Below are positions 19,343-59,276 of a DNA stretch of 64,000 nucleotides, one piece after another. The notes beneath the pieces are model-generated. The model did no database searches, had not been told where the DNA came from, and worked only from the letters and a program-made list of their open reading frames with translations. The DNA is taken from IMG/VR virus record IMGVR_UViG_3300043446_001144, positions 1-64,000 of that record. The stretch is one strand, 5' to 3'. The stretch's first letter is position 1; each line of letters begins with the position of its first letter. The DNA comes from a virus. The position numbers were made by a program, and so were the translations under genes.

Positions 19343-20589
19343 TACTTGCTCCAGTTCATGCAGTAGGTGCACTTGGTCATAAATGATTCATCGTGGAAGC
19401 AACCAGTCTCCCAACGCCAAGTAATAGCGGTTTCACTTGGTGGGCAGTTACGTGATTGAACAATTTTTAATAAACGAATCTCTTCGTCCTCTTCAACTGG
19501 CTCAAGACCAAGAATTACATCCGAATCCTGGAAGAACGAAGATGAATATCCAATTGAATCTGCAGTTACTTTTCCAGCACGCATCTTCCACAGCAATGTC
19601 TGCGTGGTGATAACTATTGGCTTGTTAATCTTTTGAGCAAGACGTTTAAGAGCGCGAGTTATGTTGGTAATTGCTTGAGGAGTATTCATCTCGCCTGTGA
19701 TTTCATCCATCATCAAATAAACACCATCAACAAACACAATGTCAGGATTGCACTGCTCAATTTTTGCTGACAGCGCTGATACGGTTATTCCATTGACTGC
19801 ATCGACAAGATGAAACGGATGTAAATTCTCCATGTCATTTAACATGTCAATATAACGAGTCTCTTCTGCAGGCAACAACTTTCCACGACGCAAACGACCA
19901 TGTGAAATGTTGGCACGCATAGCATCGTGACGCTGCTGCTGTTCGTGATTGTTCATCTCAAATGATTGGAACATCGGTACCTTGCCCAACTTGTGGACAT
20001 TGATAGCCATCTGTAGAGCAATCTGAGACTTACCTGTCTTTGGTGGAGCAATTATGGTGATTAGTTGACCGCCCTGCAATCCTGCAGTTGCTTCGTCAAT
20101 CTTTTCAAAACCAGTAGGTATTCCTAAAAAGGTCTTATTCTGTAGCGCTTTGTAATCCTCGTAACGCTGCTCAGTATTCTTTGATAAATCTACTTCGTGA
20201 GTTCCAAGAACTCCCTGTTCATTGACTTTTGCAATAGCCTGCTCCATAGCAAGAAGAGCGGCGTCATGATTGTTGTCTTGCAGTAACTCAACAGCGTTCT
20301 CAAGTCCTTGACGAGTAAGAAGTCGACGACGGAAATCAACCATCGTGTCTAACAGATATTCAACCGAATCTTCTACATCAAGAATCTTGTAGTTTGGATA
20401 ATGGTCTTTTACTGTTACGCCGGTGGGAACTTCACGATATTCGCTGTAATGTTTGCGAACGAATGTCCAAACTTTACGATTGTCTTCATCAAGAAACCAA
20501 GAATCTTGAACTCCACGTGAGAGCGCAGGAACAATATCGCGGTCACGAATTACTTTACTGACCAGACGATGTTCGTTATCTGCTGCCAT
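19342..20589 (-). CDS. dnaB: DnaB-like replicative helicase
   Basis: GIPTGF, APPKTGKS, SFEM, FVDGVYLM, QDSD. Confidence 0.92.
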   Translation of the reverse strand: MAADNEHRLVSKVIRDRDIVPALSRGVQDSWFLDEDNRKVWTFVRKHYSEYREVPTGVTVKDHYPNYKILDVEDSVEYLLDTMVDFRRRLLTRQGLENAVELLQDNNHDAALLAMEQAIAKVNEQGVLGTHEVDLSKNTEQRYEDYKALQNKTFLGIPTGFEKIDEATAGLQGGQLITIIAPPKTGKSQIALQMAINVHKLGKVPMFQSFEMNNHEQQQRHDAMRANISHGRLRRGKLLPAEETRYIDMLNDMENLHPFHLVDAVNGITVSALSAKIEQCNPDIVFVDGVYLMMDEITGEMNTPQAITNITRALKRLAQKINKPIVITTQTLLWKMRAGKVTADSIGYSSSFFQDSDVILGLEPVEEDEEIRLLKIVQSRNCPPSETAITWRWETGCFHDESFMTKCTYCMNWSK

Positions 20590-23896: not shown

Positions 23897-25819
23897 CTAC
23901 ACGTCCAGTACGTCCTTCTCCAAACCACGTTCAGTCTTGATACGCCACCACACGTTTTCAGGAACCCAATCATTTAAAGTTCCAGTAAGACGTGGAATTT
24001 TTTGGTCTCGGCTAGGGTACCGGTAACTAATTGAGTTATACGCTGTTCCTCCCCATACAACTCCATATTCATCTGGTAGTGAACCGTCAAAATATTCCGA
24101 TGCTTTAAACGACTGCTCCAGTTGAACGCAATCTATATAGAAGGTTCCTGTACTACCACTAAAGTTTAGGGACAAGGTTGTTGCCGCAGAACCCGCTGGA
24201 ATAAGGATACTCAAGTCATACCTTGACCATGATGCGCCATTGACAGACTTAGAAGTGGTAGCAACGGTTGACGATGCAGAGTCTTTTGCGGTTAACGTCA
24301 TAGTCATTGCTGCATTTGTTTTTGCATAAACGGATGCGGTGTAGTATTGACCAACAGTGATGTTGGCAGCATCCGCTGTGTAAGTCCAAGAACCTGTTGC
24401 AAGTATTTTTGCACTTCTAGTTCCTGCATAAGCGTCTGTTGTAACGTCAGTTTCTCTTGTAATTGTTGGAGAACCTGTTGAAGTCCAAAAAGTTGTGTTA
24501 GTTTCAAAAGAAGGATTTTTAATTAAATTTTTGTAGGTTGCATTTAACACAATGGTCAATGCTCGTGCTTCATCGTAGGACACTGAGGCGCCGCTTTGGT
24601 AGCACACCTGGTCAATATAGTAAGTTCCTGCAGCACTAAAATATACTTCTATATCTGCATAACTAGCAGACGAAGATGACGTTGCCGTAACACTTCCTGT
24701 TTTCCAAGTGTCATCTGCCGCTACTGGAGATGAAGATGCTGTTGAGCCAGTCTGTATTCCGTGTCTGTCGTAAAACGTTGTTCTAATAGTTACATTTCCA
24801 GCACTGGTTGGAGAACGGAATCTACATGAAACGGTGTACTCAGTACTTGGGTCTACCGGAATTCCCAATCTTATCGGGTCTGGATTTCCTAACCTCATAT
24901 AAGAAACGCCTGTAGTAACAACTTGGCAAGAATATAGGTCATCTATGACATTAGTTCCAGTGGGTGGAGTAATTGCTGTTGAAGCAGTTAGAGTTGCGTT
25001 TGCGGTTGTCCAATTACCAGTAGAATTATAAAACGTAGAACTTTGAATATCTAGAATTTTGTTTTCAGATACGGTAATAGTTGGCGCATATCCAGTTAAA
25101 GACTCTACATATGTTTCTAACCCGTTTAAAGTCCCTTTTCTGCTGTACATGTAGAGCGCTTCACGAACAAGTCTTTTTTGGTTTTTTATTGGTAAGGCAA
25201 ACTCAGGAGTTAATCCTAGATGCCCGTACTCTAATGGCAATAATGATACTGGCGTATCAATACTCACATGCCTTGGTCGTAATAAATCCAAATAAGAAAG
25301 AAGTTCTTCTATTGAAAGAGATAGTCCTCCAATAAAGTTGTACAAATCTGAAGTATTTGAAACTTGTCCTAAAGGTGTTTGTTCTGCACTGGTAAACACT
25401 CTTGGTAAAAAAGAAAGTAATTTTTGATGCGTTTCCTTATCGAAGGGCACTATTGTGTTAGCGTCACCTGCAGGCACCCAAATACTACTTCCAGTAAATA
25501 AAAACATTCGGTAATAAACCATTCTTCCAGAAACAAGAGGCGTTACTGAAGGGTTGTCAATACCGTCGTCTATAGAAAGAATAGATGGAGTAGAGGCTGC
25601 TTCTTCCCATACAGTAACCCCATCTTCAGCAGTTTCTGCGTATCCACCTTGGTTTCTTACTAACCTAATTTTAGAGAAGGTTCCTTGAGGTAGTTGCCAA
25701 GAAACTCTTATTGCAGAAAACGACAATGCAAGAAGAGATATCGGTTCTACTGAATAGGTTAACTTAGCGGGTTGACCATATGTGAACGTTCCAAATATAG
25801 ACGAACCATATTTTGCCAC
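23897..25819 (-). CDS. Baseplate wedge/tail protein (gpI-like) with Ig-like and CBM-like domains
   Basis: LLSFLPRVF, LYMYSRKGTLNGL, NLIKNPSFE...YIDCVQLEQ...YFDG; N-terminal YG repeats. Confidence 0.7.
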   Translation of the reverse strand: MAKYGSSIFGTFTYGQPAKLTYSVEPISLLALSFSAIRVSWQLPQGTFSKIRLVRNQGGYAETAEDGVTVWEEAASTPSILSIDDGIDNPSVTPLVSGRMVYYRMFLFTGSSIWVPAGDANTIVPFDKETHQKLLSFLPRVFTSAEQTPLGQVSNTSDLYNFIGGLSLSIEELLSYLDLLRPRHVSIDTPVSLLPLEYGHLGLTPEFALPIKNQKRLVREALYMYSRKGTLNGLETYVESLTGYAPTITVSENKILDIQSSTFYNSTGNWTTANATLTASTAITPPTGTNVIDDLYSCQVVTTGVSYMRLGNPDPIRLGIPVDPSTEYTVSCRFRSPTSAGNVTIRTTFYDRHGIQTGSTASSSPVAADDTWKTGSVTATSSSSASYADIEVYFSAAGTYYIDQVCYQSGASVSYDEARALTIVLNATYKNLIKNPSFETNTTFWTSTGSPTITRETDVTTDAYAGTRSAKILATGSWTYTADAANITVGQYYTASVYAKTNAAMTMTLTAKDSASSTVATTSKSVNGASWSRYDLSILIPAGSAATTLSLNFSGSTGTFYIDCVQLEQSFKASEYFDGSLPDEYGVVWGGTAYNSISYRYPSRDQKIPRLTGTLNDWVPENVWWRIKTERGLEKDVLDV

Positions 25820-25875: not shown

Positions 25876-26580
25876 TTACTTATTGACTTCTGCTTCCCAA
25901 AATTCTTTTTCAGTTTGGTATTTTTCTTCAAAGTTTGCCACATGACGATAATCACAGCAATCACAGATTGGTCTGTTATTACTGTAATCCGGCATGGACC
26001 AATACCCCATTTTTGCTCTAAATCTAAAGTCTGATTTCCATGAATTTTCAGCGTGTCCATTTGGAGTAAACGCCCAATGGTCGGGCTCTGCAAACTGCAT
26101 AAATAGAAGAGTTACAAACTTATCTTCTGTGTCTGTAGGAAATTCTGGTCTCCAATGCATTTGATAATTGCCGCAAAATACAACACATGAATTTGGCTCT
26201 TCTTCGTAAACAGTGTCTTCTACTACCAATTCCCAATCAACGTTTTTTTCAATACATACATCTAAAGAATATTGACAGGCCGACTGGTCGTAGTGTTTCC
26301 AAAGTTGAGGGATAACACCATTCTGTTTCTGATATCGTCCAACATGAAACCCTGCTCTACGAAGAGTGTCACTTCCAAAAGTTTGTTTTGCTATCTTTAA
26401 AAGTTCTGCTTCTGTTTCAGAATCAAACCAAATTTCTTCTAACCATCTTCCAGCAACTGTGTGATAAAAATGCGGTCCTTCTGGACCAAGTTGTTTAGCC
26501 AGAACTTGTTGTTTTACTTTTTCAAATAATTCTGGTGAAAGAAAATTTTTTATTGAGGTTGCTTTTACATCAATTGTCAT
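25876..26580 (-). CDS. 2OG-Fe(II) oxygenase
   Basis: KHYDQSACQYSLD...HWR (HxD...H); C-terminal CDCC. Confidence 0.78.
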   Translation of the reverse strand: MTIDVKATSIKNFLSPELFEKVKQQVLAKQLGPEGPHFYHTVAGRWLEEIWFDSETEAELLKIAKQTFGSDTLRRAGFHVGRYQKQNGVIPQLWKHYDQSACQYSLDVCIEKNVDWELVVEDTVYEEEPNSCVVFCGNYQMHWRPEFPTDTEDKFVTLLFMQFAEPDHWAFTPNGHAENSWKSDFRFRAKMGYWSMPDYSNNRPICDCCDYRHVANFEEKYQTEKEFWEAEVNK

Positions 26581-27136
26581 TTAAGTTCATCCTTATTTGT
26601 TTTCTAATTTCCTCTACGTGTTGCGGACCTTCTGTAAACCACCAATGATTTGGCTCTACATAATGGAAAAACACAACTCCTATTTTCCCACTATTTGTGT
26701 AAAGTGTATCCCGCCAGTGCTCATACTTTTCACCCATAAACATGATGGCTTCATTAGGGTTTGCAATGTAGGCTTTGTTGTCTACGTACAGAGCCCATGG
26801 GTCTACTTGGTAAAGAGTTAAGTCAAGAGTGTACGTACATGCATTTGCGTCTTTATGTTTAGATAGACTAATAGTCTCATCTGAGTATTCTGCAAACAAA
26901 GAGTACGAAGGAAGGCAAGTTTCTGTCCTAAAGTACTCTCTTACTTTTGGTAAGAGAATTTCACTATACTCTTTTAGTATAGGTTCTATATGTTCTCCTA
27001 TTAGTTTTCTGCCAAATTCGTCTGTGTTCATTGAATCTAAAACAGGATTATCTTTAAAGTGCATTTTGAGTCTATCAAAATGGTAAGGTTCTAATACATT
27101 TTTTATTATCCCTACCTCTTCGTTTATGCCATCCAT
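26570..27136 (-). CDS. 2OG-Fe(II) oxygenase (paralogue of 25876-26580)
   Basis: KHKDANACTYTLD...EHWRD...FFHYV. Confidence 0.8.
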   Translation of the reverse strand: MDGINEEVGIIKNVLEPYHFDRLKMHFKDNPVLDSMNTDEFGRKLIGEHIEPILKEYSEILLPKVREYFRTETCLPSYSLFAEYSDETISLSKHKDANACTYTLDLTLYQVDPWALYVDNKAYIANPNEAIMFMGEKYEHWRDTLYTNSGKIGVVFFHYVEPNHWWFTEGPQHVEEIRKQIRMNLNDN

Positions 27137-27699
27137 TGAACCACCACATATCTAAGACCATCTGTAACTGGATGAACTTCATGATTATATATAAAATTAG
27201 ATGGAAATATTAACAAATTGTTTTTTTCAGCCTTGAATCTGAGACCGAATCGTTTAAAAGATACGTCTCCACCTTCGTAATCTTCATTTAAGTAATAAGT
27301 TAAAGATATTCTTCTAGTAAAAAATGGGTGGTCATCGATATGGTCATGGAATTTCTGTTCTTTTCCATATCTTAACAACTGTGGATTTTCAAAAGTTTCT
27401 ATTTTTGCGTAGTAAGCATTTAAGTATTGTTCTAAGCATGGTTTCATGTTTTTATGAAATTCTTTTGTAAATTCTGTTAAAATTCCATCATCATTTGCTT
27501 CATGATGAGGGAGCATTATAAGGTCAGTGTCTCTTGCTTTGTGATTTGTTCCAGAAACATGCTCATTTTCATTAACCAGTACTTCTGCTTCTCTCCATGA
27601 TATTTTGGAATCTTGTATTCTTTTTATATATTCCATTGAATTTGTAAAAATTTTTTCAAATACAACAATTCCTGGCGCTAATTCTTTCACAGTTACCAC
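27124..27699 (-). CDS. Prolyl-4-hydroxylase-like 2OG-Fe(II) oxygenase
   Basis: QLLRY...HDHIDD...YYLNEDYEGG...IFPS...HEVHPVTDGLRYVVVQW. Confidence 0.88.
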   Translation of the reverse strand: MVTVKELAPGIVVFEKIFTNSMEYIKRIQDSKISWREAEVLVNENEHVSGTNHKARDTDLIMLPHHEANDDGILTEFTKEFHKNMKPCLEQYLNAYYAKIETFENPQLLRYGKEQKFHDHIDDHPFFTRRISLTYYLNEDYEGGDVSFKRFGLRFKAEKNNLLIFPSNFIYNHEVHPVTDGLRYVVVQWMA

Positions 27700-27899
27700 T
27701 TACCTATTGGACAAGTAGCATCTTCAAGTTTTGTTTTTAAAGGCATAAAGCACCCACATTTTTTACATTGTTTTGTCAGTTGAATCAGATGTTCGCAAGT
27801 AGAACAACTATTCAGTCTTTCTTTAGCAAGTTCATCGCTCATTTTTGGTTTACTTGCGTTAAATAAATCCCACGGTCTAACCTTTTTTGGTGCTGTCAT
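27693..27899 (-). CDS. Small Cys-rich protein (DUF6171-like)
   Basis: RL..C..C...CKKCGCFM..K......CP.GKW. Confidence 0.75.
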   Translation of the reverse strand: MTAPKKVRPWDLFNASKPKMSDELAKERLNSCSTCEHLIQLTKQCKKCGCFMPLKTKLEDATCPIGKW

Positions 27900-28360
27900 A
27901 CGTTATGGCCTTTACTTTTTAAAAGTTCTTTTTGTTCATCTGTTAAATGAGTATGAACAACGGTACGTGGGTCAACCCAATTTTCTGGAGGAATAAAGTT
28001 ATTATCATTATCAACTGTCCATCCAGGTTCAACATATCTTTTTATACCTATGGTTTCAATAGGAGGTTTTGGTTCTCTAACAACTACAATAACTTTTGGT
28101 TCGCTTCGTAAAAGTGCGCTTATTAATTCAGAGCACTCTAAAGTCTCTACTACAGTCTCATTATTTAAAAAAGCAATTACAAATTTTCCTTCGTCAGATG
28201 GTGCTTCTACGACCTCATAACCTGCTGTAATAAGGTCGTAGAACCACACGAAGGTGCCCATGATATGGACGATAATGTCATCTATAGCAAACGCTATTAA
28301 TATCCCATCTTCTTTGTTATCTGGGTTTGTTGCTAACGAAATATCATTCATAGTAATCAT
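27896..28360 (-). CDS. Acidic hypothetical protein
   Basis: Leaderless start; VEPGW...FIPP motif seen in fibre-associated chaperone-like proteins. Confidence 0.65.
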   Translation of the reverse strand: MITMNDISLATNPDNKEDGILIAFAIDDIIVHIMGTFVWFYDLITAGYEVVEAPSDEGKFVIAFLNNETVVETLECSELISALLRSEPKVIVVVREPKPPIETIGIKRYVEPGWTVDNDNNFIPPENWVDPRTVVHTHLTDEQKELLKSKGHNV

Positions 28361-28366
28361 ATAGAT

Positions 28367-28375
28367 ATCCTATCA
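28367..28375 (-). promoter_or_regulatory. Extended -10 of a leaderless transcript (TG-A-TAGGAT-N6-ATG)
   Basis: Heads the five-gene oxygenase operon. Confidence 0.6.
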
Positions 28376-29098
28376 GCAGAAAGCAGCGGCACAGCCGATT
28401 ACGCATTGGCTACCACTGTTGCTGTAGCACCAATCGCATGAACCAACAGAACAGCCAGTCCAATACGCATCTGAAGCGGTGCACTTACACCCGTACCACG
28501 GACATTCTCCTGGAGGACATGGTCCAGAAGGAGTAACCGGTGGAGTAACTGGAGGAGTAACCGGTGGAGTAACCGGTGGAGTAACTGGAGGAGTAACCGG
28601 TGGAGTAACTGGAGGAGTAACAGGAGGAGTAACCGGTGGAGTAACTGGAGGAGTAACCGGTGGAGTAACTGGAGGAGTAACAGGAGGAGTAACCGGCGGA
28701 GTAACTGGAGGAGTAACCGGCGGAGTAACAGAGGTATCGTTTACTGTAATTGTAGAACTTGTGGCAACAATAGTCCCACTTGTAGAGGTAATTCGTAAGT
28801 TTGCCCTAAATGACTCTGTACCTTCTGTAGATGCGTCATTATTTAACGTGACTGAAAAAGAACCAGAATTATTAGTAATCGTTACAGAACTACCAGAACT
28901 AACAGCGTTAGCAGGGGAACTAAAGTCAGAGTTGTTTATCGTGCCTGTGATACCTTCAAGAGTCCAGTATAAAGTTCCAGTTCCAAAATTAGTTGTAGTT
29001 ATTGTAAAAGTTACTGTGCTACCTTCGTTTACTGAGGTTGTATTGGGCGAAATTGAATACGTAGGCGAAGCAAATATAGGCATTACGATGCCAGTCAT
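28373..29098 (-). CDS. Ig/Calx-beta-like domain + (VTPP)16 stalk + 10-Cys C-terminal peptide; putative virion-displayed protein
   Basis: SVNEGSTVTFTI...TEGTESF...TVNDTS; TAATG-coupled to the fibre gene. Confidence 0.75.
   Translation of the reverse strand: MTGIVMPIFASPTYSISPNTTSVNEGSTVTFTITTTNFGTGTLYWTLEGITGTINNSDFSSPANAVSSGSSVTITNNSGSFSVTLNNDASTEGTESFRANLRITSTSGTIVATSSTITVNDTSVTPPVTPPVTPPVTPPVTPPVTPPVTPPVTPPVTPPVTPPVTPPVTPPVTPPVTPPVTPPVTPPVTPSGPCPPGECPWYGCKCTASDAYWTGCSVGSCDWCYSNSGSQCVIGCAAAFC
28530..28729. repeat. 12-bp tandem repeat, 17 GGAGTAAC cores, coding VTPP
   Basis: Counted by hand; variation only at synonymous positions of the - strand frame. Confidence 0.95.
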
Positions 29099-30057
29099 TA
29101 TGTAAGGCCATTTCCGCTAGCAATCCATGTTGTGGAAGCAACTTTTAAAAGAGTGCACATACCATTAGAAGCCAGGGTTCTTGAACCCGTAGAACTGGTG
29201 TTTGCTAATCTTAAGGTGTCTGAGGTTATTGCTATCGTTGTACTAACGGTATCAGCATTTACAACTACTATCGTTGTACCTACTGGAAATGCCACAGAAC
29301 CATTAGACGGAATAGTAATTGTTTGTCCAGTAGTTGTAACGTAGATGTGTTTACCAGCATCTGATGCAGCAAGTGTTATCCCTGTTCCAGTGCTGTTTTG
29401 AGGCATGCCCATGTAACCAGCACCAGAGGTTGCTGTCGTAGTGGTTCCTGCTGCAGGAGTAATGGTTGGTCCAGTTCCAAATACAAGTGAGCCGGAACCA
29501 GTCTCATCTGTCACTGCAGAAGCAAGATTAGACGAGGAGGGTGTTCCAAGCCAGGTTGCAATTCCTGTGCCAAAAGACGTAATTCCAGTTCCACCATTTG
29601 CTACCGGTAATGTTCCAGAAATTCCTGTAGTTAAAGGTAGTCCAGTGCAACTTGATAAAGTTCCGCTTGATGGAGTCCCAAGTGCTCCACCATTGGTTAC
29701 AAAAGCACCTGATGAGCCAACGCTTACTCCTAGTGCAGTAGCAACACCTGTTCCAAAAGAAGCAATACCAGTTCCGCCGTTAACAACTGGTAGGACATTA
29801 GTTCCGCCAATCTTGTCATACACATTTTTTAAACCATATTCAAGGTTATTAACACGGGCTTTTACGGTAGCCCATGACGTTGTTGTCGAATCAAATGAGC
29901 CAATCCAGCCAGAACTAACTGTGGGTGATGTTCCTAAAGCGGTCTGTACCGCAACAGTTTCTTCTTGAAGAGAGTTTACGTGGTCAGCAATGACCGTATC
30001 AACAAAGTCTACTTTAGTTACAAAGGACTTTACATTGGAGGGGTAAGACGCTGCCAT
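29098..30057 (-). CDS. Tail fibre/adaptor protein
   Basis: MAASYP...ADHVNSLQEE N-terminal anchor, repeated LPVxNGGTG, C-terminal FPVGT...WIASGNGLT domain. Confidence 0.75.
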   Translation of the reverse strand: MAASYPSNVKSFVTKVDFVDTVIADHVNSLQEETVAVQTALGTSPTVSSGWIGSFDSTTTSWATVKARVNNLEYGLKNVYDKIGGTNVLPVVNGGTGIASFGTGVATALGVSVGSSGAFVTNGGALGTPSSGTLSSCTGLPLTTGISGTLPVANGGTGITSFGTGIATWLGTPSSSNLASAVTDETGSGSLVFGTGPTITPAAGTTTTATSGAGYMGMPQNSTGTGITLAASDAGKHIYVTTTGQTITIPSNGSVAFPVGTTIVVVNADTVSTTIAITSDTLRLANTSSTGSRTLASNGMCTLLKVASTTWIASGNGLT

Positions 30058-30121: not shown

Positions 30122-30817
30122 TCACGCTATCTGGTTAACCGTCACTATCACAGACGGGACCGCAGGGTAGGGAGACGCGGCAGGCCTATTCTCAAGTCTT
30201 ATGTTGGCGTTATCATTAGACCAAAAGACCTGGAAATAATCGTCTGCCTTCATATACTCAAACAAATTAACAGTCATTACCTGGTATTCATTACTGCCTA
30301 CTACTATCGAAGTGGCTGAGTTGTCTATGGCTGTACCATTTTTAGCAAACCAAAGATAAGCCGATTGTCCTGCTCCTCCGCCTCCTGTGTTATGGATTTG
30401 AGCAGAAAACTGAATGTTGTAAGTAGCAGGTTCTTCAATAACGAGTTTGGAAGAGTCTTTTAAAAACACTCCCTCTTCAAAAAAGGCTGTAGTCAAAGGT
30501 ACCGCTGTACCAACTCCTGGAGTAGCCGTTAAATCTCCAGTATTACACCAAGACCCGTATGCCATCAATCCTTGAGGGTCTTCTCCAAACTCTCCAATCC
30601 ATACTGGATATTCCGGATTTCCTCCTATGTACATCACCCATGTACCAGTACCTACTGCTGGAGGACGTTTTGTCGAGAGTACAGGCCAAATCCAATCAGT
30701 TACTTGGTCTCCTGTAATTTGGGGAACCACTACTCGTATGCGTCGTAAATGTTTGGGGTCCTTGTTGTACTTTACGACTGCTCGATAGACTCCCTCGTAA
30801 CGTGGTACTAAATCCAT
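30122..30817 (-). CDS. Baseplate spike (gp5/gpV OB-fold) with C1q/TNF-like C-terminal domain
   Basis: GVYRAVV...DP..L.RIRV.VPQ...W...P.VG..WV.Y.GG.PEYPVW.G; YNIQFSAQI. Confidence 0.8.
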   Translation of the reverse strand: MDLVPRYEGVYRAVVKYNKDPKHLRRIRVVVPQITGDQVTDWIWPVLSTKRPPAVGTGTWVMYIGGNPEYPVWIGEFGEDPQGLMAYGSWCNTGDLTATPGVGTAVPLTTAFFEEGVFLKDSSKLVIEEPATYNIQFSAQIHNTGGGGAGQSAYLWFAKNGTAIDNSATSIVVGSNEYQVMTVNLFEYMKADDYFQVFWSNDNANIRLENRPAASPYPAVPSVIVTVNQIA

Positions 30818-44146: not shown

Positions 44147-45643
44147 CTATGCCACCCGTGTGATAGAGGCCACGTAGAACGTGTAAGTGTTTGTTGTCCC
44201 AGAGTTCATTGTTAGTTTTAGGTAGTTTAAGGCAGTTGTGTCTACTGCTACGGCAGTGGTGGTGTTGGTTGTGACTGTGCTGCCGTTGTAATGACTGGTT
44301 GTGCTTCCAAGAATAGTTCCGGCAATTCCAGTACTTCGCACTGTAATAAGGGCATTTATTTCTATTGCCCCTGCAGTTGCTGTTGCTCCAATGGTTCCTG
44401 TTGTTGCGACGGTACCAGTCGTTGCGGATGTAGTTGTTCCTACTCTAACATTGTAGGTAGCAGTAACATTGTTAGTTCCAGTGCGAACTCCGTATGCCCT
44501 TACAATGTAACTAGAACCAACTACTAAAGCATCTGCGGCTACAGCAAGGTTGATAACGTTGGTCTCTGTCGCTGCAGTTGTGGTTACGCTGGTTGTTAAT
44601 GAACTACCACTTAAACCCAGAGTGCCTTGAATTCCTTGTGTACCTATTGTTCCTTGGTTTCCTGTTAAACCTGTAGTTCCCTGGAATCCTTGAATTCCCG
44701 TAAGACCTTGAGTTCCTTGTCGGCCTTGAATTCCTTGAGTACCTTGAGCACCTGTGGCACCTTGAATACCGTTAGTTCCCTGTGTACCAACCGTACCTTG
44801 AGAGCCTAGTGTTCCTTGAATACCCTGTCTTCCTTGAATTCCTTGTGTTCCTTGCGTACCAAGGACACCTTGTGTTCCTTGTCGGCCTTGAATTCCTTGA
44901 GTACCAATGACTCCTTGAATACCTGTTAAACCTTGCGCACCAACACCAACCGAACCTTGCGCACCAATTACTCCCTGTATTCCTTGAGTTCCCTGTGTGC
45001 CGAGCGTTCCTTGAGAGCCGGTTGTTCCTTGACGTCCCTGTACACCTTGTACTCCTTGAAGACCTGTAAGACCTTGGTTTCCAGCAATACCTTGTGCACC
45101 AGCAGTTCCCTGTGCACCCTGTTGACCAACACCTGTAATTCCCTGTAAACCAATGTAGCCCTGCAATCCTTGCGCACCTGCAGTTCCTTGCGCACCATTA
45201 CTGCCACTAGTTCCAGAAGAGCCTTGCGTTCCTGTTCTACCTTGAACACCTTGTGTTCCATTTGTGCCCTGAATACCCGCAGAACCGTTAGAACCTGCAG
45301 TTCCTTGTGTTCCTGTTCCCGCAACACCTTGAGTTCCATTTAAACCTTGAGTACCAGTCGTACCCTGACGACCTTGAGTTCCTTGAGCACCTGTTCCATT
45401 TGCTCCTTGAATACCAAGCGCACCCTGTGTTCCAGTAAATCCTTGAATACCTATTGTTCCAGTTGTTCCTTGGAGTCCTAACGGACCACGAGTTCCTTGT
45501 ACGCCTTGACGACCTTGAGTTCCTTGTCGGCCTTGAATAGCCTGTGTACTTAAAGATTGGATTCCAGCATCTAAATAATCAAGCGCTGCATTAAGTGTGA
45601 CATCCCAATCGGATTGTCCTGCAACGGGCTTTTGAAGTGGCAC
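44147..45643 (-). CDS. Collagen-like fibre (G-X-Q/T repeats) with globular C-terminal head
   Basis: N-terminal P..G...W...LN.ALD anchor; about 300 aa of Gly-X-Y; Thr-rich beta head. Confidence 0.85.
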   Translation of the reverse strand: MPLQKPVAGQSDWDVTLNAALDYLDAGIQSLSTQAIQGRQGTQGRQGVQGTRGPLGLQGTTGTIGIQGFTGTQGALGIQGANGTGAQGTQGRQGTTGTQGLNGTQGVAGTGTQGTAGSNGSAGIQGTNGTQGVQGRTGTQGSSGTSGSNGAQGTAGAQGLQGYIGLQGITGVGQQGAQGTAGAQGIAGNQGLTGLQGVQGVQGRQGTTGSQGTLGTQGTQGIQGVIGAQGSVGVGAQGLTGIQGVIGTQGIQGRQGTQGVLGTQGTQGIQGRQGIQGTLGSQGTVGTQGTNGIQGATGAQGTQGIQGRQGTQGLTGIQGFQGTTGLTGNQGTIGTQGIQGTLGLSGSSLTTSVTTTAATETNVINLAVAADALVVGSSYIVRAYGVRTGTNNVTATYNVRVGTTTSATTGTVATTGTIGATATAGAIEINALITVRSTGIAGTILGSTTSHYNGSTVTTNTTTAVAVDTTALNYLKLTMNSGTTNTYTFYVASITRVA

Positions 45644-57011: not shown

Positions 57012-59276
57012 TTATCTGAATATAAATGATTGTACCAGCGTATCTGCTGGTACATTGGGGATTAGTCCTTGAGTTCCTTGAAGTCCTTGAGTACCAGTTG
57101 TACCTTGATTTCCCAAAGTACCCTGAACGCCTTGAGTTCCAACTGTTCCTTGAGAACCGATAAAGCCTTGATTTCCAGTAGTGCCCTGAACACCTGTGGT
57201 TCCTTGAGTACCCTGTGCTCCTGTATCTCCAGTTATTCCTATAGTACCTTGGGAACCAGTAACTCCTTGAGTTCCTTGAAGTCCTTGAGTACCAGTTGTA
57301 CCTTGATTTCCGTCTAATCCTTGAATTCCTTGTGTTCCTTGCGTACCAGTCGTTCCCTGCGTACCAACTGTTCCTTGGGCTCCTGTAGTTCCTTGATGAC
57401 CAGTCGTGCCTTGAGTTCCTTGTGCACCCTCAGTCCCTTGAGCGCCTGTTAATCCTTGAGTACCGGTAGTGCCTTGTGTTCCCGTAGTTCCTTGTATACC
57501 AGTCTCTCCTTGTAATCCAAGTGTTCCTTGAGTACCTTGCGTACCAGTGGAACCGGTTGCACCAGTTGCTCCTTGGGCTCCTGTCTGTCCTTGAGCACCC
57601 TCAGTTCCTTGCGCACCTGTTAATCCGTCTGTTCCTTGTATGCCGGTTGTTCCTTGAGAGCCTGTTGTTCCTTGAGAGCCTGTTGTTCCTTGAATTCCAG
57701 TAGTTCCTTGTGCACCCTCAGTCCCTTGAGCGCCTGTTAATCCTTGAGTACCAGTTGTACCTTGTGTTCCCGTAGTTCCTTGTATACCGGTTGTACCCTG
57801 AGAACCAGTTGTTCCTTGGGCTCCAATTGTTCCCTGTGCACCCGTTGTACCTTGAATACCAGATGCAAAAGTTATAAGTTCAATGTTTAAATCATTTGCA
57901 AATCCAGATGTCCCTGTTCCTCCAGACGCTGACAAAGACACTGGTATTTTTACATAACTATTTGAAATTACTATTGCAGAACTAGTGACATCAAATGTTT
58001 GATAGTTATCAGAGTCAGTTTTATCTTGAATAATAATTTGGTCATACTGTTTAATAATTGCCAAAAAGACGTCTATGTCAATCCCTAATTGTGTTAGATG
58101 GTTTACATAGATAAAAGAGGCACTAGTTTGAGAAGAATTATTCCAACGAAGATAGCCCGATGATGGCTGAGAGTCTGTTTGCGAATTAGCATCTGCTTTA
58201 TAGTTGTAATAACTAGAGGAGGTACCGCTGGCTCCAGTTACACCTTGAATGCCTTGAGTTCCAAAAGTTCCCTGAATACCTATTGTTCCTTGAGTTCCTT
58301 GAAGTCCCTGCAATCCTTGCACACCCTGCAAACCATCAGTTCCCTGAGTGCCCTGAGTACCTTGAGACCCAGTAATTCCTTGCGTACCTTGCGCTCCTGT
58401 ATTTCCAATAGCGCCTTGAGTACCCGTCTCTCCTTGAACTCCTTGAGTCCCTTGAACACCTTGAGAACCAGTAGTTCCCTGTATACCTTGATTACCAGTA
58501 GTTCCTTGTACGCCTACTGTTCCTTGAGGCCCCTGTGTTCCCTGTAATCCTTGAAGACCTTCAGAACCAGTTATGCCTTGATGACCTTCGGTTCCTTGAA
58601 CACCTTGAGTTCCTTGAGAACCAGTAGTTCCCTGAATTCCTTGAGTACCTTGTATACCAGTTAACCCTTGAACACCTTGAGTACCAGTCTCTCCTTGTAC
58701 TCCATTTAAGCCTTGAGTACCAGTTGTACCCTGACGACCTTGGATTCCTTGAGTACCAGTTGTACCCTGACGACCTTGAGTTCCTTGAGCACCTGTTGTA
58801 CCTGTAGTTCCTTGAGAACCAGTAGTTCCCTGACTACCCTGTGTACCATTGGCGCCTTGTGTTCCAAAAATACCTTGAGTTCCTTGGGCTCCTGTAGTTC
58901 CAAAAGTTCCTTGAGAACCAGTAGTTCCCTGAATTCCTTGAGTACCTTGAACTCCAACAGTTCCTTGTATGCCTTGAGTTCCTTGAGTTCCTTGTGCTCC
59001 TTGGATTCCTTGCGCACCCAGCGCACCCTGAGTTCCAATTGCTCCTTGAACTCCAACAGTTCCTTGTATGCCTTGAGTTCCCTGCAAACCTTGAGGGCCA
59101 AGATTTCCTTGCGTACCTTGTCGTCCCTGTATTCCTTGAGAGCCAATAGAGCCACCCTGTCCAGCACCGACTGCAACAGACAAGGGGTTAGGAATTTGAA
59201 CACTTACACTTATTTGTAAAGGTTCTCGTCCTTGTACGCCTTGTGGTCCTTGAGTACCTTGAATACCTTGTGTCAC
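57012..59276 (-). CDS. Long collagen-like fibre with two G-X-Q segments separated by a globular domain
   Basis: GTQ/GIQ/GAQ/GTT triplets; non-collagen insert at about 57865-58225; GTGA coupling to the neck gene. Confidence 0.88.
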   Translation of the reverse strand: MTQGIQGTQGPQGVQGREPLQISVSVQIPNPLSVAVGAGQGGSIGSQGIQGRQGTQGNLGPQGLQGTQGIQGTVGVQGAIGTQGALGAQGIQGAQGTQGTQGIQGTVGVQGTQGIQGTTGSQGTFGTTGAQGTQGIFGTQGANGTQGSQGTTGSQGTTGTTGAQGTQGRQGTTGTQGIQGRQGTTGTQGLNGVQGETGTQGVQGLTGIQGTQGIQGTTGSQGTQGVQGTEGHQGITGSEGLQGLQGTQGPQGTVGVQGTTGNQGIQGTTGSQGVQGTQGVQGETGTQGAIGNTGAQGTQGITGSQGTQGTQGTDGLQGVQGLQGLQGTQGTIGIQGTFGTQGIQGVTGASGTSSSYYNYKADANSQTDSQPSSGYLRWNNSSQTSASFIYVNHLTQLGIDIDVFLAIIKQYDQIIIQDKTDSDNYQTFDVTSSAIVISNSYVKIPVSLSASGGTGTSGFANDLNIELITFASGIQGTTGAQGTIGAQGTTGSQGTTGIQGTTGTQGTTGTQGLTGAQGTEGAQGTTGIQGTTGSQGTTGSQGTTGIQGTDGLTGAQGTEGAQGQTGAQGATGATGSTGTQGTQGTLGLQGETGIQGTTGTQGTTGTQGLTGAQGTEGAQGTQGTTGHQGTTGAQGTVGTQGTTGTQGTQGIQGLDGNQGTTGTQGLQGTQGVTGSQGTIGITGDTGAQGTQGTTGVQGTTGNQGFIGSQGTVGTQGVQGTLGNQGTTGTQGLQGTQGLIPNVPADTLVQSFIFR

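Follow-up and report, generated by a model that had tools for sequence, protein, structure and literature searches.

What do phage-encoded oxygenases act on when their genes lie directly behind a fibre gene? The question is raised by seven genes at positions 25876-30057 of a 64,000-nucleotide (nt) stretch of viral DNA (the window; positions 1 to 64,000 of IMGVR_UViG_3300043446_001144, an IMG/VR viral record of 77 kb with an estimated completeness of 79%). The genes encode a fibre, a stalk protein with a Pro-rich repeat and a Cys-rich tip, two small proteins, and three putative 2-oxoglutarate- and Fe(II)-dependent (2OG-Fe(II)) oxygenases. Our answer, to which we give a probability of roughly 0.6, is that they form a fibre-decoration module whose enzymes would mature the Pro-rich stalk of a Cys-tipped fibre add-on. 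The case for a functional link between enzymes and stalk is one of comparative genomics.

The stalk protein and the genes beside it

The stalk protein (241 amino acids (aa); 29098-28373, minus strand) is composed of an Ig/Calx-like domain, a VTPP repeat, and a Cys-rich tip, an architecture recognized in a preliminary description of this DNA and borne out here. Residues 10-122 (28733-29071) have sub-threshold Pfam matches to Ig_3 (3.9e-6) and Calx-beta (0.052) and are modelled by AlphaFold2 (AF2) as a β-sandwich with a predicted local distance difference test (pLDDT) score of about 95. The best Foldseek match of the sandwich is the Calx-beta domain CBD1 of NCX1 (2dpk, 4.8e-5), and its acidic D..TEG.E.F motif is invariant in an alignment of relatives. 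With this modelled sandwich and acidic motif, the N-terminal domain is predicted to be Calx-beta/Ig-like.

The stalk itself (28538-28729, residues 124-187) comprises exactly 16 copies of VTPP; its DNA is a tandem array of 12-nt units on which a 60-nt higher-order period is superimposed. The stalk adopts no secondary structure in the AF2 model (pLDDT 60-75), is the sole Pro-repeat and the most Pro-rich segment in the window, and is the candidate hydroxylase substrate. A plus-strand open reading frame (ORF) at 28479-29105 (208 aa, GVTGG repeats) was rejected as a gene, being the antisense shadow of the VTPP array.

The tip occupies the last 54 aa (28376-28537), where the preliminary description had counted 50, and contains the 10 Cys and 3 Trp reported there together with 3 Tyr. 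Residues 198-241 are modelled at pLDDT < 50, and a search with the tip alone (residues 190-241) returned no homologue sharing short words. Across 44 distinct tips, most of them aromatic-rich, the Cys count is even in 40. Even counts and aromatic content are the sole points in favour of a putative knottin-, defensin-, or hevein-type disulfide mini-domain, of which the first two had been suggested earlier. The tip is probably a receptor-binding knob.

The fibre (319 aa; 30057-29098, minus strand) is coupled to the stalk protein by the TAATG junction noted earlier, in which the two genes share the A. It has no Pfam or PHROG match and holds only 12 Pro and no repeat. Its C-terminal residues 227-318 yielded four significant matches at 28-38% identity (up to 37.6%), all to single-chain proteins (L240, L200, L180, and L191) in which the matching domain directly precedes a (PT)n stalk and a Cys tip. 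Since relatives carry this domain fused to stalk and tip, the stalk and tip probably belong to the fibre. L191 (2414-4579) and L182 (4466-5911) are beads-on-a-string fibres, with ~30-aa, 4-Cys, W/Y-rich mini-modules (for example C..AWSY.QS.CQ.CGYYW....GEC) set between long (PT)n linkers; both end in an 8-Cys tip, and the arrangement is reminiscent of small carbohydrate-binding modules strung along glycosylated linkers.

Behind the stalk gene are two small proteins, previously described as an acidic protein and a Cys-rich one. The first (154 aa; 28360-27896, minus strand) is indeed acidic, with 26 D+E versus 12 K+R, and is a divergent member of the small70 family, matched over a GWTxD..NF.PP motif (hhalign probability 81%, E 1.3e-5); it is possibly a tip-specific chaperone. 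The second (68 aa; 27899-27693, minus strand) is a DUF6171 protein (Pfam PF19668, 7.7e-8; phrog_13558, 1.2e-16) with six Cys conserved in the alignment as C-x2-C-x9-C-x2-C-x-C-x12-C. DUF6171 occurs at no fewer than 580 loci in viral records, and its ESM Atlas clusters, like those of the oxygenase family OXb described below, are virus-only. An unannotated DUF6171-like frame lies between tRNA-Asn and gp29 of Synechococcus phage syn9 (L246:5001-5168, record 20321-20488), near gp23 ('DNA endonuclease V') and three putative fibre genes, gp32-34. Short lake-metagenome contigs bearing DUF6171 (L274-L285) have been binned into metagenome-assembled genomes of unrelated phyla (Luteolibacter, Beijerinckiaceae, Bacteroidetes, Saccharimonadales, and an archaeon); they are most likely mis-binned phage contigs and offer no clue to a host.

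The P4H-like oxygenase of the preliminary description (191 aa; listed at 27699-27124, minus strand) matches PF13640 (2OG-FeII_Oxy_3) at 2.5e-15, above the cut-off. Compared with solved structures, its family profile matches Bacillus anthracis prolyl 4-hydroxylase (P4H) over nearly the full length (5e-15), followed by PKHD/PiuC, prolyl 3-hydroxylase 1 (P3H1), PHD2, the P4H of chlorovirus PBCV-1 (5c5t, 1.5e-7), LH3, and a Chlamydomonas P4H. The iron triad H120, D122, and H173 is invariant in the family alignment, and the Arg of a GLRY motif, 10 residues past H173, is a candidate basic 2OG-binding residue. Profile and triad thus assign the protein, at the level of sequence, to the 2OG-FeII_Oxy_3/P4H type; its putative role as a peptidyl-proline hydroxylase is suggested by genomic context. 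The listed GTG start at 27699 falls inside the DUF6171 gene, and an in-frame GTG at 27690, probably the true start, would open the protein with MKELAPGIVV..., in agreement with the ATG at which the gene begins in L004 and other relatives.

As a single sequence, the P4H-type enzyme finds its best PDB matches among collagen lysyl hydroxylases, including mimivirus L230. The window encodes two collagen-like proteins (44147-45643 and 57012-59276) with GXY tracts of 111 and 315 residues. Rich in Gln and Thr, with 0-2 Pro and 0 Lys, the tracts are unusual in composition for collagen and agree with their earlier characterization as almost proline-free; as they hold no Lys, a collagen-type lysyl hydroxylase role was rejected. 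The enzyme also matches phrog_2297 and phrog_274, families labelled DNA endonuclease, so endonuclease labels in cyanophages may hide 2OG oxygenases.

The two remaining oxygenases, OXb (188 aa; 27136-26570, minus strand) and the third enzyme (234 aa; 26580-25876, minus strand), are the paralogous pair with an HxD...H motif that had been recognized earlier (BLASTP 28% identity, E 3e-17). R142 is invariant in an alignment of 25 OXb sequences, and H94, D96, and H140 are nearly so. These residues form H94-x-D96 ... H140-W-R142 in the 188-aa protein; the 234-aa protein has HYD at residue 96, MHWR at 142, and a Cys-containing C-terminal extension. The AF2 model of the 188-aa protein (pLDDT 95.2) has a double-stranded β-helix (DSBH) oxygenase fold, matched by Foldseek with probability 1.0 to 8zyb, EvdO1, AsqJ, NMAD-1, and PHD2. 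The family is phage-only and was matched by no Pfam model; by modelled fold and motifs, both paralogues are predicted members of the 2OG-Fe(II) DSBH superfamily. The label 'ferrochelatase', attached to phrog_2954 (matched by the 188-aa protein) and phrog_3531 and used in RefSeq, was rejected, fold and motifs being those of a 2OG oxygenase.

Conservation of the neighbourhood and co-variation with the stalk

The co-occurrence of Pro-rich, Cys-tipped genes with oxygenases, proposed earlier as a check, was sampled from three directions, through the Ig domain, DUF6171, and the P4H-type enzyme. Gene order is conserved from all three, and the neighbourhood is real and non-random. The Ig domain is common in phage fibres (204 viral and 358 metagenome loci) and has many C-terminal partners. 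The count took in dereplicated Ig proteins followed by 1.5 kb of sequence or more. A protein was scored as tipped if its final 60 residues held 4 or more Cys, and P4H, OXb, GT60, or radical S-adenosylmethionine (rSAM) genes within 4 kb downstream were scored as enzymes. A modification enzyme follows 11/11 tipped versus 5/88 untipped proteins (Fisher p = 3e-11) and DUF6171 follows 10/11 versus 1/88 (Fisher p = 8e-12), although the loci belong to related phages and are not phylogenetically independent, so that both p-values overstate independence. The slot of the small protein is filled in all 11 tipped and in 0/88 untipped cases.

Sampling through DUF6171 placed a Cys-tipped fibre with a Pro/Thr low-complexity repeat immediately upstream at ~36 of 78 loci, many of them lacking the Ig domain, with mixes of P4H, OXb, GT60, rSAM-SPASM, epimerase, and DUF6065 genes downstream. 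Sampling through the P4H-type enzyme revealed the order stalk, small protein, DUF6171, P4H in all 26 close relatives (36-81% identity), with a Cys tip visible in 25 of the 26. The stalk repeats of these relatives are PPVV, PPVT, PV, PPPIIAT, PPFF, and PT, which have no residue in common but Pro.

The ends of the module diverge as its enzymes are kept. Between the window and the related locus L004, identity is 79% for the P4H-type enzyme, 73% and 77% for the OXb paralogues (77% being that of the 234-aa protein), 70% for the Ig domain, and 54% for DUF6171; the two tips have no detectable similarity, in line with the tip hypervariability anticipated earlier, and the 154-aa protein has no BLAST similarity to its L004 counterpart. 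Joint variation of tip and small protein beside conserved enzymes is expected of a receptor-binding end with a cognate chaperone.

The enzyme type co-varies with stalk composition. P4H and/or OXb follow 21/27 Pro-rich stalks versus 0/5 poly-Thr stalks (p = 0.002); all five of the latter (L002, L166, L176, L190, and L210) are followed by PF11397/GT60 and no oxygenase. Stalks of the (PT)n type often have both enzyme types, as in L007, where the order is small protein, DUF6171, P4H, GT60. GT60 matches are strong in these relatives (2e-49 in L007, 1e-32 in L002), and the family comprises the polypeptide α-N-acetylglucosamine (GlcNAc) transferases that initiate mucin-type O-glycosylation in protists (PMC8724618). 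The same slot in other relatives holds an Asp_Arg_Hydrox (Asp/Asn β-hydroxylase-like) gene (1.4e-16), GT61 (6e-12), a PHROG glycosyltransferase, NAD epimerases, and, in some relatives only, rSAM-SPASM genes whose NCBIfam family matches are all sub-threshold. Judged by family assignment, all other enzyme families in the slot modify proteins or glycans.

Other stalk types occur among the sampled proteins. Tyr-rich stalks built of PQYYAA or PYHAP/PYYAP and then GT60 alone are found in L084-L091 (e.g. L090:1572-3347), and the downstream order in L085 is P4H-DUF6065-P4H; the Tyr/Pro repeats of this set recall adhesive or cross-linking proteins. Proteins P0008, P0009, P0012, P0014, and P0016-P0018 combine an FN3 and an Ig domain with Pro-free IQIINx stalks and 10-12-Cys tips.

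Proposed maturation of the stalk and rival explanations

From gene anatomy, folds, catalytic motifs, synteny, and enzyme/stalk co-variation, we infer a substrate, a chemistry, a virion location, and a tip function as follows. Fibre, stalk protein, small protein, DUF6171, and the three oxygenases would be transcribed together as a late operon. The Calx-beta/Ig domain would anchor a ~20-nm polyproline-II-like (VTPP)16 rod capped by the 10-Cys, aromatic-rich knob. Stalk prolines would be hydroxylated by the P4H-type enzyme, just as Pro-rich repeats are by extensin and PBCV-1 P4Hs, and the rod would thereby become stiffer, more hydrated, and protease-proof; further hydroxylations, on stalk or tip, may come from the two paralogous oxygenases. 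In relatives, GT60, with or without an epimerase or rSAM-SPASM enzyme in the same slot, would yield a mucin-like glycosylated stalk. The small acidic protein may serve as a chaperone specific to the tip, and DUF6171 may be an accessory to the enzymes or to the cysteines. Once the cell has lysed, the Cys, even in number, would oxidize to a knot, producing the hypervariable receptor-binding tip.

The earlier proposal that phage enzymes mature the stalk is supported by three-way synteny, enzyme/composition co-variation, and the fused relatives, and loses the separate promoter and operon that had been part of it (see below). Its comparison with ribosomally synthesized and post-translationally modified peptides (RiPPs) is reduced to an analogy: the substrate would be a 241-aa multidomain protein with no leader, and neither a protease nor a RiPP recognition element (RRE) gene was found among the module genes (ORF list, Pfam). 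A wider version of the proposal, in which aquatic phages commonly make hydroxyproline-rich or mucin-like fibres in the bacterial cytoplasm through a swappable cassette of P4H-type oxygenases, GT60/GT61, Asp/Asn hydroxylase, and rSAM-SPASM enzymes helped by DUF6171, is offered tentatively, at somewhat below even odds.

Several observations, besides the kinship of the sampled loci, count against maturation of the stalk. In cultured T4-like cyanophages, P4H-type and DUF6171 homologues lie among small non-structural genes, as does a DUF6171 homologue in a Stenotrophomonas phage; the neighbourhoods of P4H-like/DUF6171 homologues in cultured phages (S-MbCM7, Syn9, Yut2) are uninformative. P4H+OXb pairs stand beside Gly-rich, Ig-bearing fibres that have neither Pro stalk nor Cys tip in L119, L134, and L142, and the oxygenase-fibre link may be broader than the stalk module. 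PQYYAA and PYHAP stalks are accompanied by GT60 alone despite a repeat without Ser/Thr, and the PQYYAA repeat of L085 has P4H instead. GT60 (PF11397) was not detected in the 77-kb record, which is about 79% complete; control genomes also gave none. The OXb fold, finally, is about equally close to small-molecule, nucleic-acid, and protein oxygenases.

Some of these points suit an alternative in which the enzymes mature the Cys tip and the stalk is a passive spacer, by analogy with RiPP or EGF-domain maturation. Asp/Asn/Trp/Pro hydroxylation, or thioether or glycosyl links, would then be placed in the knob. DUF6171 and the enzymes do track the Cys tip in the Ig sampling, L003 has a Pro stalk and lacks both tip and DUF6171, and the single PQYYAA stalk type occurs with GT60 or P4H where tips differ. 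Pro lies within the Cys cluster of many tips that accompany P4H, and the Asp/Asn β-hydroxylase-like, GT61, and rSAM-SPASM families act elsewhere on Cys-rich domains or peptides. The enzyme type nevertheless follows the stalk, with oxygenases behind none of the five poly-Thr and most of the Pro-rich repeats, and P4H accompanies Pro stalks without a Cys tip in L003, L186, and L205. Tips that are wholly unlike beside enzymes that are 73-79% identical are also hard to reconcile with sequence-specific tip recognition, and we regard tip maturation as unlikely, although it is the strongest of the alternatives.

A functional link could also be absent altogether, the oxygenases being the usual auxiliary genes of aquatic phages that accumulated in a recombination-prone, AT-rich island by the fibres and act on nucleic acids, metabolites, or 2OG levels. 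Published suggestions for phage 2OG-Fe(II) oxygenases are guesses only, naming DNA repair or modulation of 2OG/N-stress (PMC3037559); for viral P4H, a survey from 2022 describes the role as cryptic (PMC9301287). The cyanophage homologues away from fibres, the low, moron-like GC content of the block, and an OXb fold as near to AlkB-type and small-molecule oxygenases as to PHD2 fit this account. It is at odds with an order of stalk, small protein, DUF6171, and enzyme that is retained for stalks and tips of many kinds, in genes that overlap or are coupled, with the co-variation of enzyme type and repeat composition, with the protein- or glycan-modifying families otherwise found in the slot, and with peptidyl prolyl and lysyl hydroxylases as nearest solved relatives of the P4H profile; we consider it improbable, second among the alternatives. 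Least probable in our estimate is a different protein target: the upstream fibre, Gly-rich or collagen-like virion fibres, a host surface protein, or a translation protein such as EF-Tu, on which bacterial PHD-type enzymes act. The oxygenase pairs beside Gly-rich fibres and the single-sequence matches to collagen lysyl hydroxylases, mimivirus L230 among them, point that way, against the near absence of Lys and Pro from the collagen-like tracts, the few Pro and missing repeat of the 319-aa fibre, and the Pro-repeat protein found ahead of P4H in 26/26 close relatives.

Known systems and genomic setting

The P4H of chlorovirus PBCV-1 acts on viral Pro-rich repeats (Eriksson et al. 1999, as cited in PMC9301287). 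Like that virus, the phage encodes a P4H-type 2OG oxygenase, monomeric in PBCV-1, together with short Pro-rich tandem repeats as presumed substrates. PBCV-1 is a giant algal virus, however, whose enzyme and substrates are not in one operon, whereas the phage module has a prokaryotic host, a fixed cassette behind the substrate gene, DUF6171, the small protein, additional oxygenases, and the Cys tip; the closest solved relative of the phage P4H is the B. anthracis enzyme (5e-15) and not that of PBCV-1.

Extended Pro or Thr/Pro repeats acted on by P4H and/or GT60 are likewise features of extensins and arabinogalactan proteins, protist GT60 mucin-type O-GlcNAc, and the hydroxyproline-GlcNAc of Skp1, whose Gnt1 belongs to GT60. 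Relatives of the locus, with P4H and GT60 behind (PT)n and GT60 alone behind poly-Thr, repeat the pairing known from hydroxyproline-rich glycoproteins and mucins. Those systems operate in the eukaryotic secretory pathway or on a single Skp1 Pro, in contrast to a virion protein in the bacterial cytoplasm.

Mimivirus hydroxylates and glucosylates its own collagen via L230 (PDB 6ax6), and an L230-type lysyl hydroxylase is among the PDB matches of the phage enzyme. In work by Freeman et al. in 2023, mycobacteriophage virions were reportedly found to be glycosylated by phage-encoded glycosyltransferases. Mycobacteriophage virion glycosylation is echoed in PMC11256854 and PMC10568470. In both cases viral enzymes modify the virus's own structural proteins post-translationally, but the enzyme families differ, the targets are capsid or tail-tube C-termini in mycobacteriophages and collagen Lys in mimivirus, and neither has a hypervariable stalk-plus-tip substrate, DUF6171, or repeat-dependent cassette content. 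A further parallel is offered by cellulases (fungal CBM1, Cellulomonas PT linkers), in which glycosylated Pro/Thr linkers join small Cys/aromatic-rich carbohydrate-binding modules. The likeness is one of layout, a domain being followed by a PT/Pro-rich linker and a small disulfide-type, aromatic-rich module; on this analogy, carbohydrate binding by the tip is a guess.

The literature searched contained no description of the stalk/tip/DUF6171/enzyme module, which, on the comparisons above, would represent a new and widespread phage variant of virus-encoded protein hydroxylation and glycosylation. For the abundant phage P4H genes, the locus and its relatives supply a specific candidate substrate, whose gene lies two to three genes upstream. 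If the wider version of the proposal is correct, many of the abundant phage genes filed as 'P4H / 2OG-Fe(II) oxygenase' auxiliary metabolic genes would serve in virion maturation, and protein chemistry of the extensin and mucin type would be present in the prokaryotic virosphere. If stalk maturation itself is correct, hydroxyproline-glycoprotein chemistry would extend to viruses of bacteria, and receptor-binding fibres would be stiffened and decorated by hydroxylation and O-glycosylation, with a bearing on host range, protease resistance, and the proteomic detection of virion proteins. With a small protein that co-varies with each of them, the hypervariable Cys tips resemble a natural library of small binding domains.

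The phage is an uncultured aquatic myovirus, with a tail sheath 35% identical to those of Streptomyces phages. At the nucleotide level the region matched none of 50,697 phage records, and a protein search gave one weak marine-virus match. All seven module genes lie on the minus strand, tightly packed between baseplate/tail genes. Past the TAATG junction of fibre and stalk genes, a 12-nt gap separates the stalk gene from that of the 154-aa protein, which overlaps the DUF6171 gene at ATGA. DUF6171 and P4H-type genes overlap by 7 nt as listed and are separated by 2 nt if the oxygenase starts at the GTG at 27690; the P4H-type gene overlaps the 188-aa gene by 13 nt, which in turn overlaps the 234-aa gene by 11 nt. 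The preliminary description had placed a leaderless promoter behind the stalk gene and set the hydroxylase genes apart as their own operon. An ordinary Shine-Dalgarno site, AGGA, stands in the 12-nt gap 7 nt ahead of the ATG; no promoter-like site was found between the stalk and 154-aa genes, and matches in the region were no more frequent than in shuffled sequence. Neither the promoter nor the separate operon is therefore supported, and the seven genes read as one coupled operon.

L074/L081 carries one fused protein of 389 aa, with matches to both oxygenase families, beside a Gly-rich, Ig-bearing fibre. The P4H gene is just downstream of the Gly-rich fibre gene in L134 and L142, and the oxygenase pair precedes the fibre in L119.

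In the window, the described AT-richness of the module relative to its surroundings is seen as a dip in GC to 0.32-0.375 over 25-28 kb versus about 0.40-0.47 in the flanks. The flanking genes are baseplate or tail genes, where the earlier description had named the baseplate. A 56-nt gap separates the 234-aa oxygenase gene from that of a 640-aa protein downstream (23897-25819), which matches CBM_4_9 (1.1e-11) and has a weak, sub-threshold match to Tail_P2_I, and a gpV-like spike gene lies upstream of the fibre (30122-30817; Phage_base_V, 1.8e-8).

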